Part shown: in pieces, positions 1-7,056 of the stretch
Numbering within the stretch: position 1 is the stretch's first letter
How the letters are laid out: each line of letters opens with the position of its first letter
Virus record (IMG/VR): IMGVR_UViG_2706794681_000016
DNA length: 7,056 nt
Direction: 5' to 3' (one strand)
Source of the DNA: a virus
Lineage: Duplodnaviria > Heunggongvirae > Uroviricota > Caudoviricetes
Made by a program: the position numbers and the translations under genes
The notes under the pieces: generated by a model
The model's input: the letters and a program-made list of their open reading frames with translations, nothing else
Database searches by the model: none
What the model was told of the DNA's origin: nothing

Positions 1-75
1 GAACAGGAGGGACAGCTGATAGAAACAGAAGCCACTGGAGCACCTCAAAAACACCATCATACACTAAATCAGTAA

Positions 76-588
76 GTTGGCAGCATCACCGGGGGCGCAG
101 ACCCTGATTATGTTATCTGGGCGAAAGAAGTTCAGGGTATTAACCGTGCATGGACTTTCAGACACTGGAAAGGCACTGGAACGGTTGGCGTGATGGTGGC
201 GACAAACGATCCGGAACGCCCGGCCCCGGATGAAAGCGTGATTAACGCAGTCAGGGACCACATCCTTCCTCTGGCACCTGTTGCCGGAAGCGGATTGTAT
301 GTATTCGGTGCCACAGAAAAAGTCATCCCGATGACGATTGCATTATCGAAAGACACACCGCAGATCAGGACTGCAATAAAAGCAGAGCTGAATGCACTGA
401 TGTTACGGGATGGTGTGCCAGAGGGGCGTATGTATCTGTCCAGAATCAGTGAGGCCATCAGTTTGTCTGCTGGTGAAGTGGCCCACCGGTTAATCGTCCC
501 TTCATCGGATATTGACCTGGGGGAGACCGAGCTTCCGGTGCTCGGCGAGATCACCTGGCAGGCTTATGACCCGGCAAGGAGTAAATAA
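76..588 (+). pseudogene. baseplate J-like protein, C-terminal fragment (5'-truncated)
   Basis: Frame 1 is open from 76 to TAA 586-588 and reads ...GGADPDYVIWAKEVQGINRAWTF..., which I recognise as the conserved C-terminal region of P2 gpJ / Mu gp47 baseplate proteins. There is an in-frame TAA at 73-75 and no ATG/GTG/TTG before GTG 190, so at most ~170 codons of a normally ~300-370 aa protein are present. Family call is from memory. Confidence 0.5.
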
Positions 589-1178
589 TGGATTCGTTAC
601 AGGATGATTATACAAAGCTGCTGTACGGACTGATGCCGCCGGGGCCTGCATGGTCAGATACCGACGGTGTACTTGACGGTCTGGCACCATCGCTTGTGCG
701 TGTTCACCAGCGGGCTGATGAACTGGTGATTGAAATCGATCCCGGTCAGTCCACAGAGCTGATTGAACGTTATGAAGAATTGTATGGTTTACCTGATTCC
801 TGTTCCCCTGTCGGAACCCAGACATTACGCCAGCGTCAGCAACGTCTTGAAGCAAAAGCCAATGTGGCTGGTGGCATAAATGAGCAGTTCTTCCTGGATC
901 AGCTTGAGGCGCTGGGATATACCGGCGTAACGATCGAACAGTTCCAGCACTTGGATGCAAGCCCCGATCCGGAATGGGGAGATCGCTGGCGTTATTTCTG
1001 GCGTGTGACGTTGCCGATGGATGCCGGTGCTCAGTGGCAGACATGCACGGACGCCTGCAACACACCGATCCGGACGTGGGGGGATACGGTTGCGGAGTGC
1101 GTGATTAATAAATTATGTCCGTCACACACCGTCGTTTTATTTTCCTATCCAGATGAGGATGAAGATGCACAGGATTGA
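588..1178 (+). CDS. phage tail protein, Mu gp48 / DUF2313 (YmfQ-like)
   Basis: 196-aa ORF; ATG 588 overlaps the upstream stop (TAATG) with AAGGA 9 nt upstream. The product (MDSLQDDYTKLLYGLMPPGPAW...YEELYGLP...) resembles the DUF2313 tail proteins that precede the fibre gene in Mu and e14-type tail modules. Position between baseplate J and the tail fibre fits. Confidence 0.7.
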   Translation: MDSLQDDYTKLLYGLMPPGPAWSDTDGVLDGLAPSLVRVHQRADELVIEIDPGQSTELIERYEELYGLPDSCSPVGTQTLRQRQQRLEAKANVAGGINEQFFLDQLEALGYTGVTIEQFQHLDASPDPEWGDRWRYFWRVTLPMDAGAQWQTCTDACNTPIRTWGDTVAECVINKLCPSHTVVLFSYPDEDEDAQD

Positions 1179-2205
1179 TACGCTGACTGCGGTAAAAGAT
1201 AAGTTTGGTCCGGGTAAGAACGGATTTACTGACGGAAATCTTCGCACAGGACGTCTTGCTACCTGGCTGAACAGTGCCATGTGGAATGCCATTCAGGAGG
1301 AAATCTGTGGTGTCATTGAGAAGGCCGGGATAGAACTGAATAAAGAAGAACACGACCAGCTATATAAGGCTATATTATTGCTGGTGGGCGGTGCAATTAA
1401 CGAAGAGGCATTGCTGATAAAAAATAACCTTTCGGATGTGGAAGACAGGGATGAGGCTGTTGAAAACCTCGGATTAAAACCCACGGTGGATAAGGCAAAA
1501 AATGCCGTTCAGCGTGATGGCGACACCATGACCGGAGAGCTGAAAATCCGTGGTGTTAATGCGCTGAGGATTTTCAACGAAGCTTTTGGCCTGATTTTTC
1601 GTCGTTCGGAAGAGTGCCTGCACCTTATTCCCACCAGTGAAGGTCAGGGGGAAAATGGCGATATTGGTCCCCTGCGCCCGTTCACCATTAATCTGCGGAC
1701 GGGTGAAATATCCATGTCGCATAAAGTGTCTGTTGGCGGTGGTTCGCAGGTCAATGGTGCGCTGGGTATCGGCGTTCAGAACGCCCTGGGGGGGAATTCA
1801 ATTGTTCTTGGTGATAATGACACCGGATTCAAACAGAATGGTGATGGCCTGCTGGATGTTTATGCCAATAGCGTGCATGTGTTGCGTTTTCAGAGTGGCA
1901 GTATCCAGAGTAATAAAGCTGTAAACGTTACAGGACGGGTAACACCGTCAGACTACGGAAACTTTGATGCCCGTTACCAGCAGCGAAATGGTGGCGTGCA
2001 GGATGTGCGGTATGGTTATGAAATGTATTACCCCCCCGGCAGTAACACCGTTTCGTGGACATTTCGCTCACCTTCGGGACACGGGCTGTCAGGGATATCG
2101 ATATCGGATACCGGCCGTAACTCAGCGGATAACGTCAACGGCGTGTATTACCGACCGCTGCAAAAACTGATTAATGGCACCTGGTATAACGTAGCGAGTA
2201 TTTAA
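1165..2205 (+). CDS. tail fibre protein (P2 gpH / Mu S-like C-terminal receptor-binding region)
   Basis: ORF open from 1153; ATG 1165 is preferred because GAGGA lies 5 nt upstream (1153 and 1159 are alternatives). The C-terminal segment ...ALGGNSIVLGDNDTGFKQNGDGLLDVYANS...INGTWYNVASI matches the conserved distal motif of P2 gpH-type fibres as I recall it; the N-terminal ~60 aa resemble a fibre attachment domain. Confidence 0.8.
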   Translation: MHRIDTLTAVKDKFGPGKNGFTDGNLRTGRLATWLNSAMWNAIQEEICGVIEKAGIELNKEEHDQLYKAILLLVGGAINEEALLIKNNLSDVEDRDEAVENLGLKPTVDKAKNAVQRDGDTMTGELKIRGVNALRIFNEAFGLIFRRSEECLHLIPTSEGQGENGDIGPLRPFTINLRTGEISMSHKVSVGGGSQVNGALGIGVQNALGGNSIVLGDNDTGFKQNGDGLLDVYANSVHVLRFQSGSIQSNKAVNVTGRVTPSDYGNFDARYQQRNGGVQDVRYGYEMYYPPGSNTVSWTFRSPSGHGLSGISISDTGRNSADNVNGVYYRPLQKLINGTWYNVASI

Positions 2206-2207
2206 CA

Positions 2208-2753
2208 ATGTTGCATTTAAAAAATATTACGGCAGGTAATCCGAAAACCGCGGAATAATATCAGCTGACAAAACAGTATGATGTCACCTGGCTTTTTTCG
2301 GAAGACGGCAAAAACTGGTATGAAGAACAGAAGAACTTTGCCAGTGACACCATAAAAATGGTTTACACCGGAGACGGGCGCGTGGTGTGGGTCGGTAAGG
2401 ATGTGACAGGCATTGAACCCCGTAACGCCAGTGTTATTGAAGTTCCTGATATTACCGCCAACCGCCGCATTACCGCGCCGGGTTACTGGTTTTACCGCAA
2501 TGATGAATTTGTCTTTGACTACAGACTCAAAGCGGAAGATGAGCGTGATGCCCTTCTGGCTCAGGTCAGTGCCCGGACAGGGGAATGGGAAGAAGACCTG
2601 CTGCTGGGGCTAATCAGCGACGAAGACCGGGAAAAACTGAAAGCGTACCGTATTTACGCGAAATCGCTGCAGGCGATGGATTTCAGCACCATCACTGATA
2701 AATCCTCATATAACGCCATTGAATGGTCCGTCTCTCCGGAAGGTTCTTCCTGA
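2208..2753 (+). pseudogene. tail fibre assembly chaperone (Tfa family) with in-frame TAA at codon 17
   Basis: ATG 2208 lies 2 nt after the fibre stop and reads MLHLKNITAGNPKTAE, then TAA at 2256-2258, then continues in the same frame as YQLTKQYDVTWLFSEDGKNWYEEQKNF... to 2753. Both the N-terminus and the C-terminal ...IEWSVSPE match the TfaQ/TfaR/lambda-Tfa family from memory. The largest uninterrupted ORF is 2358..2753 (131 aa) with no obvious RBS. Confidence 0.6.
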
Positions 2754-2776
2754 TTTAATTTATCGCGAGAAAAACT

Positions 2777-4045
2777 ATGTCTGTAGTGATATCAGGTGCG
2801 CTGACTGATGGCGCAGGCATCCCCATGTCCGGATGCCAGATTATTCTGAAATCCCGTGTAAACACCTCAGAAGTGGTGATGCGTACCAGGGCTGATGTAG
2901 TGACCGGAAATAACGGTGAATATTCGTTTGAGGCACAGGTCGGAAAATATTGCGTGTATCTGAAACGGGACTGGCGCGACGAGTACTGTGTTGGCGACAT
3001 TGCTGTATACGACGACTCAAAGCCCGGCACGCTGAATGACTTTCTGATTGCTCCTGATGAGGGCGACCTGAAACCGGATGTCGTCAAACGCTTTGAGGAA
3101 ATGGTGGCGCAGGCGCAGCAGAGCGCCGGGGCCGCAGCCGGAAACGCACAGCAGACGGCGCAGGATGTGGCGGCAGCCGCAGGTTATGCCCGCGCAGCAG
3201 AGCAGGCCAAAAATGACATTGATGCTGCGCTGACCGGCACTCTGAAAACGGCTAACCATCTGTCTGAAATCGCAGCAGCAGGCGAAAAGGCACAACAGAA
3301 GTCCCGGGATAATCTGGGGCTGAAAAGTGCGGCCACGATGGAAGCACAGAGCGACATTTACGACCGGACAAAAGGCCGTCTGGCGATACCCGGCGCATTC
3401 GGCTTTGGGTGTGCTTTTCTGCCTGAAGATGTTATCCGTTTTGACACTAAGAGTGATTTCCTGGCCTGGGTAAGGAATGCGCTGCCAGGTGAATATTCCG
3501 TTGCTGGCCCCTACGACATCATCATACCCGACACACGGTTTGAAGGGGTGCTCAGCATCCGGTGGACTGATGCACGCCCTGAGACAACAGAACCGAGGTA
3601 CAGAGCCAAATCCCTTACTTTTTACGGCATTAACGGCCCCATTTATCACACCCGCTACTGCTACTGGCCCATATCCAGACTGACTGGCTGGGTGAAAATA
3701 AATATAACCACAGAAGATATTATTTACAGAATCGTGGCGAGCTCTGTCTGCAACAGATGGGGAGACCCTGACATTGGCGGGCTGATTATTGCTGCGTACC
3801 AGGGAGAAGCTGACGGTGATAAAGTCATCAGACTTGTCAGGGGGCAGTCATACAGAGGCTCACGACTGGGACCGGTGGGGATTTCAGTGCCCAGTACTCC
3901 CACCGGAACGTATATAGCATCCCCACAATTTTTCATTACGGGATGTTCAGAGCATTCATTACCGGGGTCATATAGCGCCCTGTCCGGGGTGCCGGATGCT
4001 CATGTCTCTGGCGCAATGCCCGGGCTTTTTATTCGCACATCGTGA
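2777..4045 (+). CDS. side tail fibre protein, lambda Stf-like N-terminal domain, Ala-rich shaft, unassigned C-terminal domain
   Basis: 422-aa ORF. The N-terminus MSVVISGALTDGAGIPMSGCQIILKSRVNTSEVV...VYDDSKPGTLNDFL parallels lambda Stf (MAVKISGVLKDGTGKPVQNCTIQLKARRN...YEDSQPGTLNDFL) as I recall it. An Ala/Gln-rich low-complexity linker follows (~3100..3300); the C-terminal ~230 aa have no motif I recognise. Confidence 0.8.
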   Translation: MSVVISGALTDGAGIPMSGCQIILKSRVNTSEVVMRTRADVVTGNNGEYSFEAQVGKYCVYLKRDWRDEYCVGDIAVYDDSKPGTLNDFLIAPDEGDLKPDVVKRFEEMVAQAQQSAGAAAGNAQQTAQDVAAAAGYARAAEQAKNDIDAALTGTLKTANHLSEIAAAGEKAQQKSRDNLGLKSAATMEAQSDIYDRTKGRLAIPGAFGFGCAFLPEDVIRFDTKSDFLAWVRNALPGEYSVAGPYDIIIPDTRFEGVLSIRWTDARPETTEPRYRAKSLTFYGINGPIYHTRYCYWPISRLTGWVKINITTEDIIYRIVASSVCNRWGDPDIGGLIIAAYQGEADGDKVIRLVRGQSYRGSRLGPVGISVPSTPTGTYIASPQFFITGCSEHSLPGSYSALSGVPDAHVSGAMPGLFIRTS

Positions 4046-4055
4046 GGAATGCACC

Positions 4056-4785
4056 GTGGAAATTAAAAAAATCATTAATCCCCGTTATACCGAAAGTGGC
4101 GCAGTAGACTGTGACGTTTTTTTTGACGACAGGGACCAGGCAGTCCCCTACACAGCCACCGCTGATGATGTCGCACCGACGGGTCAGCGAATCTGGCAGG
4201 AACTGCAAAGTGGCAAATGGGGTGAGATAGCCCCATTCACTGTGACACCAGAAATGCTGGAAGCGGCCAGAGAGGCCAGACGTCAGGAAATTGAAGCATG
4301 GCGCACAGAACAGGAGGCGAAGCCGTTCACGTTTGAATGGAACGGTCGTATCTGGAATGCTGGCCCCAACTCACTGGGCCGCCTGTCCCCGGTAGTCATG
4401 CTGGCAAAATCTGTCACAGCACAAACNNNNNNNNNNNNNNNNNNNNNNNNNNNNNNNNNNNNNNNNNNNNNNNNNNNNNNNNNNNNNNNNNNNNNNNNNN
4501 NNNNNNNNNNNNNNNNNNNNNNNNNNNNNNNNNNACTCACTGGGCCGCCTGTCCCCGGTAGTCATGCTGGCAAAATCTGTCACAGCACAAACGCATATGG
4601 CGTGGGGTGATGCCGATAATCAGCAGGTGAAACTGTCGATGCCGGAACTGGAAGAACTGGCGGCAGCAATGGTGCAGGCGCAGGTCGATCGCAACGATGA
4701 GATTTATCGCCGTCAGCGTGAAATGAAAGAGGAGCTGAGTGGTCTGGAGGATTTGGGAACAATTAGAGCGTTTGATGTTACGTAA
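4056..4785 (+). CDS. putative tail fibre assembly chaperone (interrupted by assembly gap)
   Basis: GTG 4056 lies 6 nt after GAGGAA (4044-4049). The ORF runs into the N gap in frame 0 and resumes in frame 1 to TAA 4783-4785. Removing the 166-nt offset between the duplicated gap flanks gives one continuous ~187-aa ORF. Function is inferred mainly from its position immediately downstream of a fibre gene; family is uncertain. Confidence 0.5.
4369..4426. repeat. 58-bp direct repeat, copy 1 (left flank of assembly gap)
   Basis: actcactgggccgcctgtccccggtagtcatgctggcaaaatctgtcacagcacaaac is identical to 4535..4592. Confidence 0.9.
4427..4534. other. assembly gap (108 N)
   Basis: Uninterrupted run of N seen directly in the sequence. 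Confidence 0.97.
4535..4592. repeat. 58-bp direct repeat, copy 2 (right flank of assembly gap)
   Basis: Identical to 4369..4426; looks like an unmerged contig overlap. Confidence 0.9.
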
Positions 4786-4831
4786 TTGGTAAGCTGCATC
4801 GTGTTAAATTGTTACCCTTATTTACAACTAG

Positions 4832-4865
4832 AAAAGCCTCTGACTTCATAATCAGAGGCTTTTTT
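4832..4865 (+). terminator. rho-independent terminator (partly bidirectional)
   Basis: Perfect 12-bp stem aaaagcctctga (4832-4843) / tcagaggctttt (4852-4863) with an 8-nt loop, followed by a T6 run on the + strand. On the minus strand the hairpin is followed by TTTTC, so it may also act on transcripts reading through from ssrA. Confidence 0.65.
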
Positions 4866-4866
4866 G

Positions 4867-4882
4867 AAATGCACGTGCATTT
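4867..4882. repeat. perfect 16-bp palindrome AAATGCACGTGCATTT
   Basis: Seen directly in the sequence; lies between the terminator and the ssrA 3' end. Function unknown. Confidence 0.9.
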
Positions 4883-4983: not shown

Positions 4984-5346
4984 TGGTGGAGCTGGCGGGA
5001 GTTGAACCCGCGTCCGAAATTCCTACATCCTCGGTACTACATGCTTAGTCAGTCTTTACATTCGCTTGCCAGCTGCGGACGGACACGCCACTAACAAACT
5101 AGCCTGATTAAGTTTTAACGCTTCAACCCCAGGCAGGGCTTCCACGCGATCTCTTTTGGGTTTGACCTCTCTTGATCCCCGTCCTAAGAGCGGAGGCTAG
5201 GGAGAGAGGGCTCTAAGCAGGTTATTAAGCTGCTAAAGCGTAGTTTTCGTCGTTTGCGACTATTTTTTGCGGCTTTTTACGAGGCCAACCGCCCCTCGGC
5301 ATGCACCTTGGGTTTCGCAAATCCCGTCGAATCCAGAATCAGCCCC
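4984..5346 (-). ncRNA. ssrA: tmRNA (transfer-messenger RNA)
   Basis: 363-nt minus-strand match to the E. coli tmRNA as I recall it: 5' GGGGCTGATTCTGGATTCGACGGG... to 3' ...GGGTTCAACTCCCGCCAGCTCCACCA. The tag reading frame on the minus strand (plus coordinates 5257..5225) encodes ANDENYALAA followed by a stop. Confidence 0.95.
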
Positions 5347-6931: not shown

Positions 6932-7008
6932 CAGACAGAAAAAAGGTGCTCATTGAGCTAATGCCGATCAGTTAAGGATCAGTTGACCGATCCAGTGGCT
7001 GTGTAAGA

Positions 7009-7042
7009 ATCCGGAAACGCTCACTTGTTTCCGGATTTTTTT
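7009..7042 (+). terminator. rho-independent terminator downstream of ratB
   Basis: 10-bp stem atccggaaac (7009-7018) / gtttccggat (7027-7036), 8-nt loop, then a T7 run (7036-7042). Confidence 0.7.
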
Positions 7043-7056
7043 ATGCACATTGGACA

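Follow-up and report, generated by a model that had tools for sequence, protein, structure and literature searches.

The nearest characterised relatives of the gene described here are the tail fibre assembly (Tfa) proteins gpU and gpU′ of phage Mu and the Tfa of the Stx2e phage phiP27 (NC_003356). In Mu, the chaperone gene belongs to the baseplate module (Mu type, gp44 to gp48) and comes directly 3′ of the fibre gene. The summary of the Mu structure paper given in PMC9608196, from which we take the domain roles, describes an N-terminal domain of Tfa that binds the fibre at its C-terminal part and a C-terminal helical domain that drives assembly. The same gene arrangement is found in the DNA analysed here, a stretch of 7,056 nucleotides from the viral record IMGVR_UViG_2706794681_000016 (the window), where the ATG of tfa (2208–2753, plus strand) lies directly 3′ of the end of a tail fibre gene at 2205. 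With its codon 17 restored to glutamine, the window Tfa can be aligned from residue 1 to about residue 160 with Mu gpU (structure 5YVQ, chain B; E 8e-39), and glutamine 17 is common to both. Identity is 50% to the Mu U′ gene by tblastn and about 50% to the U/U′ proteins of Mu, D108, SfMu and P1/P7 as a group, rising to 75.8% over all 181 residues for the phiP27 Tfa. The window differs from Mu gpU in the C-terminal 20 residues and in having a nonsense codon at position 17, and from the Mu locus in that tfa is not followed by an invertible G segment or a Gin/Pin recombinase; in their place come, on the same strand, a second fibre gene and then one with DUF4376. The phiP27 gene, for its part, is intact and resides in a phage; its counterpart in the window is a pseudogene and part of a remnant ridden with IS elements. 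Among bacterial copies, a public 181-residue allele (P0001, MULTISPECIES Enterobacteriaceae, from E. coli/Shigella prophages) has the same 180 other residues with CAA at codon 17; its carriers include the related remnants in CP119446.1 and CP026846.1, which lie at ssrA/smpB like that of the window but have CAA and different IS insertions. The top phage homologue came from an unexpected host, being the full-length, 86.7% identical protein in a record that bears the name Actinobacillus phage vB_Apl-pPE4 (PP818812.1).

The window opens in IS1 terminal sequence (1–90, no strand assigned), as judged by the match to the ends of other IS1 copies and by homology to E. coli prophages that begins only at base 91. 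What IS1 has left of baseplate J, a Mu gp47-like gene, follows on the plus strand as a 3′ fragment (91–588), which matches positions 171–255 only of the Pfam Baseplate_J profile. Directly upstream, the S. sonnei chromosomes have a transposase gene of IS1, baseplate J is split into pieces of 224 and about 131 residues, and a second IS1 is present after the tape-measure gene. The module also exists in intact form, in a locus (L016) that is 98.8% identical and has a 360-residue baseplate J and a 181-residue Tfa. Next in the window, again on the plus strand, are a Mu gp48-like baseplate gene of the YmfQ family (588–1178; PF10076) and the tail fibre gene that is the presumed client of the chaperone (1165–2205; 346 residues, matching phrog_6859 over its full length and called at 346 residues in relatives). 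Downstream of tfa are the second tail fibre gene (2777–4045, plus strand; 422 residues, with the prophage tail fibre N-terminal domain PF08400 and an exact protein match named for S. sonnei) and the DUF4376 gene (3996–4785, plus strand). The prophage remnant abuts the 3′ end of ssrA, the tmRNA gene (4984–5346, minus strand), which was located with ARAGORN and by comparison with collinear chromosomes.

The DUF4376 gene is interrupted by a gap in this record only. The window has a run of 108 N at 4427–4534 between the two copies of an exact 58-bp duplication (4369–4426 and 4535–4592), and because the S. sonnei chromosomes are continuous at this point with one copy of the 58-bp flank, we regard the N run as a scaffolding artefact; by the collinear chromosomes the gene reconstructs to 207 residues. 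Contigs from SRA runs diverge at the same site, with some proceeding toward an ipaH-type NEL gene, and this branching marks the site as a repeat boundary.

That tfa belongs by descent to the Caudo_TAP, or Mu gpU-type, family, as a pseudogene, is clear from its profile matches. The Gln-restored product matched Pfam Caudo_TAP (PF02413) with E 9.4e-25 and 87.7 bits against a cut-off of 22.1, and phrog_136, "tail fiber assembly protein," with E 1.7e-59 over residues 1–178; separate PHROG profiles matched residues 1–93 and 107–178. The first-pass annotation of this DNA, made from the sequence by a model, had named a Tfa-type chaperone gene with a premature TAA at codon 17 in an otherwise continuous frame, and both the family and the frame hold. 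The frame comprises 181 codons and a terminal stop, running from ATG at 2208–2210 to TGA at 2751–2753, and translates as MLHLKNITAGNPKTAE, then the stop, then YQLTKQYDV and onward. Its sole internal in-frame stop is the TAA at 2256–2258 (codon 17, plus strand), so that a full-length Tfa-coding frame is absent. At this base composition, about 9.6 stops would be expected per 181 random codons and one internal stop was found, so that tfa is a real gene with one lesion. Restoring glutamine at codon 17 yields exactly the public 181-residue protein, the remaining 180 sense codons being identical. We also modelled Tfa with AlphaFold2, for which the alignment was shallow (17 sequences at ≥85% identity); helices 105–155 were predicted with confidence (pLDDT 88–95) and residues 1–46 had pLDDT below 50. 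Since only the C-terminal helices were modelled confidently, what the truncation removes could not be mapped on the model, and it was set aside for that purpose.

The ancestral state of codon 17 was read from DNA and protein alignments alike. Codon 17 is CAA in VL40 and FDAARGOS_944, which of the complete E. coli genomes are closest to the window, and FDAARGOS_944 differs from the window at a single position in 141 aligned bases, namely C for T at 2256. The change was therefore C to T at position 2256, in agreement with the earlier suggestion that one CAA to TAA substitution would suffice. We collected 134 family members, 11 of which do not reach column 17 (a 131-residue remnant, entries marked as partial at source, and several 162-residue entries). 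Glutamine occupied the column in all 123 homologues that cover it, none of which has a stop there, and it is invariant in the alignment that includes Mu gpU. The statement in the first-pass annotation that homologues have glutamine at this position was thus accurate; one refinement, where it had named TfaQ, TfaR and TfaE, is that among the proteins compared here the nearest characterised relatives are Mu gpU/U′ and phiP27 Tfa. Of the 134 homologues, 118 start at residue 1, and the first 50 residues are the best conserved part of the protein, with about 74% identity to Mu gpU by our own count vs. 44% overall. It had been foreseen that homologues might naturally start at the downstream methionine, and we looked for such proteins: none of the 134 begins naturally downstream of the stop, the shorter ones being contig-end fragments, start choices or products of other lesions.

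The 162-residue Tfa entries of other Shigella were considered as natural short forms and rejected. For those of S. flexneri 2457T and S. boydii the DNA upstream is an open frame, and for those of three S. flexneri chromosomes there is a separate −1 frameshift in an A6 run at codons 5–6; these database homologues are accordingly start-choice artefacts or the result of another lesion. The frameshift was seen in the S. flexneri tfa paralogues of loci L024, L025 and L028, about 45 bases upstream of position 8001, while the two copies of 2457T (L026 and L027) keep A6 and an open frame. It may be an independent lesion or a homopolymer error.

The TAA allele was found repeatedly. All 10 Logan contigs recovered through the 131-residue ORF downstream of the stop, each assembled from a different SRA sequencing run, have TAA at codon 17 and are 99.9–100% identical to the window. 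The same is true of codon 17 in all 19 distinct NCBI assemblies (18 of them chromosome-scale) that were collected by means of the neighbouring 422-residue protein and the annotated 162-residue remnant. Ten of the 19 were aligned lengthwise and are collinear with the window from 1 to 4426 and from 4535 onward, eight of them matching through ssrA, smpB, ratA and an RnfH-family gene to 7056 and the other two ending at 5021. Carriers are named Shigella sonnei, as is evident from AAZ89357.1 of strain Ss046, the UniRef entry Q3YYQ5_SHISS and the 162- and 422-residue proteins, and every S. sonnei assembly that we sampled has the TAA. When 5,426 complete genomes of E. coli were searched with a 63-mer carrying the TAA, there was no exact match, the best hits being off by one base. 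An exact TAA-bearing 36-mer was without a match among species-representative contigs, a result that is uninformative because S. sonnei is probably not a separate species representative.

Comparison of assemblies also suggests the order in which the lesions accumulated. Two draft contigs (L021, which carries an N at an internal junction, and L023) have the exact IS1 junction of the window and yet CAA at codon 17, together with A at position 2032. Among the 23 TAA assemblies that reach position 2032, 16 have A and seven have C, as does the window. The A2032C change replaces threonine with proline at codon 290 of the 346-residue fibre frame and creates a run of seven C. As C occurs in a subset only of the TAA-bearing S. 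sonnei assemblies, A2032C postdates the stop and sets a sub-lineage apart, unless the site is homopolymer-prone. Given that contigs with the IS1 junction and CAA exist, and that C2032 is confined to part of the TAA group, we infer from these nested sequence states that IS1 insertion would have come first, followed by Q17* and then by the Thr-to-Pro missense change. The three nested states (IS1 junction, TAA, A2032C) could serve as minor lineage markers.

Two shorter reading frames remain downstream of the stop. One (2265–2753, plus strand) has 162 codons from CTG at codon 20 and is annotated by NCBI as "tail fiber assembly protein" (the gene call at 9489–9977 in L034, and its equivalents). The other (2358–2753, plus strand) has 131 codons from Met51 and is annotated in S. 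sonnei Ss046 (AAZ89357.1, Q3YYQ5_SHISS). The CTG lies 7 nt past the stop and is preceded by poor Shine-Dalgarno pairing (−3.5 kcal/mol); Met51 is the first ATG, GTG or TTG past the stop and has no Shine-Dalgarno pairing upstream (−0.2 kcal/mol). The exact 162-residue product (P0135) is named for Shigella sonnei and occurs on at least 1,000 contigs, NCBI pipelines calling it as an intact protein without a pseudogene flag. Comparison with the full-length allele shows no decay of the window tfa beyond the stop, and the mutation is therefore recent, or else the truncated product is possibly still tolerated.

Taking these results together, we conclude with a probability of roughly 0.93 that the TAA is a genuine C-to-T nonsense mutation (Q17*) in the tfa of a defective prophage remnant with a Mu-like tail at the 3′ end of ssrA in S. 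sonnei, and that it represents neutral decay. The native ATG is coupled translationally to the fibre gene, whose stop lies 2 nt upstream, and translation from it now ends after 16 residues. Any product restarted at the CTG of codon 20 or the ATG of codon 51 would be without the conserved start of the N-terminal domain, the region that in Mu gpU is the fibre-binding part, and loss of chaperone function is likely. The tail module as a whole is unable to build a baseplate, IS1 having split baseplate J. Because baseplate J had already been split, Q17* should have no phenotype, and the mutation most likely reflects neutral decay under relaxed selection. IS expansion and gene decay are well known in the genus Shigella. 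The first-pass annotation had offered pseudogenisation of a decaying prophage as one of two explanations, and this is the correct one, baseplate J having been split by IS1 in the same module.

Its other explanation, that an error of sequencing or assembly produced the TAA in a draft scaffolded record, has some initial appeal as the record does contain the 108-N gap with its duplicated 58-bp flank. However, the identical TAA recurs in 29 other assemblies (10 from SRA runs and 19 from NCBI), the finished Ss046 genome already annotates the 131-residue product, and position 2256 is outside any homopolymer; the recurrence excludes a draft error, and we give this explanation practically no credence. 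A real stop might also be one that is read through or recoded, by programmed readthrough or an ochre suppressor, such that full-length Tfa is made. This is a general possibility for which we found no supporting evidence, and several observations argue against it: programmed sites are conserved, yet stops at codon 17 are absent from the homologues; ARAGORN found the tmRNA and no suppressor tRNA in the window; and the TAA-bearing 63-mer is absent from the complete E. coli genomes. For E. coli, the context TAA followed by T, as here, is reported to terminate translation most efficiently. Readthrough is, accordingly, an exceedingly improbable account of the allele.

More can be said for the proposal that the gene is not broken at all, and that a shorter Tfa from CTG codon 20 (162 residues) or Met51 (131 residues) is natural or functional. 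The 162-residue product is called by NCBI in S. sonnei chromosomes and is widespread on contigs, the remnant has no additional lesions, and the C-terminal helical domain, as predicted by AlphaFold2, would be retained. Against this, all 118 full-length homologues begin at residue 1 and the segment that would be lost is the one most similar to Mu gpU; the short S. flexneri and S. boydii entries owe their length to start choice in a frame that is open upstream, or to a separate frameshift; neither start has a Shine-Dalgarno sequence before it, and CTG initiates poorly; in Mu, according to the summary in PMC9608196, it is the N-terminal domain that binds the fibre; and the tail module had already been disabled by IS1. 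We therefore consider a natural or functional short form improbable, with a few chances in a hundred at best. Slightly less probable again is that restart at the CTG or Met51 still yields a truncated chaperone, kept for a host-beneficial role of the cassette, or that the allele is a clean marker separating S. sonnei from its CAA-bearing relatives. A final alternative accepts the inactivation and attributes it to positive selection in S. sonnei, for example against a costly or immunogenic fibre complex. The presence of TAA in all sampled S. sonnei assemblies and the independent −1 frameshift at codons 5–6 in some S. flexneri paralogues are what such selection might produce. However, the module was probably dead through IS1 before the stop arose, drift is expected to fix alleles in a recently emerged clonal pathogen, and the S. 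flexneri frameshift, lying in an A6 run, is possibly a homopolymer error or itself neutral decay. Positive selection consequently has very little to recommend it next to the neutral loss of tfa by Q17*.

The tfa stop is an ordinary, lineage-fixed pseudogene mutation with nothing new in kind. Its sequence occurs in well over a thousand public assemblies, and the remnant is already annotated in two ways: the 131-residue Ss046 protein AAZ89357.1 and the 162-residue S. sonnei protein derive from the same DNA as the window and are shown as normal proteins. These S. sonnei entries are pseudogene remnants and not natural short isoforms. The biological weight of the finding is very small, as it adds another case to the well-documented decay of prophages and genes in Shigella, and where it is of practical use is in annotation: the stop is genuine, the short entries are derived from a pseudogene, and the N run in the window record is artefactual. 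Since the stop is real, assemblies should not be "corrected" at position 2256. Our literature search found no account of the prophage at ssrA in S. sonnei.

Several minor features of the locus and its relatives were observed in addition. Positions 4829–4867, in the interval from the DUF4376 stop to ssrA, read as a GC-rich hairpin with a T run behind it (gaaaagcctctgacttcataatcagaggcttttttg) and resemble an intrinsic terminator. In the S. sonnei chromosomes CP032523.1 (L035) and CP044191.1 (L039), the match to the window ends at about 5021, in the 3′ part of ssrA, and from about 12080 there is a further prophage with an integrase, a repressor and other genes; we therefore read these two chromosomes as having tandem prophage insertions at ssrA. 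At the far end of the window, E. coli homology stops at 6958, leaving 6959–7056 outside it, and in S. sonnei chromosomes a gene for an IS4-family transposase begins at the equivalent of position 7025. Beyond that gene, some S. sonnei chromosomes have raiA/pheA and not bamE/recN, which suggests an IS-mediated rearrangement. The cassette formed by the fibre gene, tfa, the second fibre gene and the DUF4376 gene was also seen at other loci (L001, L002, L004 and L026), where it directly adjoins ipaH effector genes, encoding leucine-rich repeats and an NEL E3 ligase. The hosts of these copies are EIEC-like E. coli and S. flexneri, with one copy on an SRA-run contig (L004); in the window, the cassette has ssrA beside it instead.
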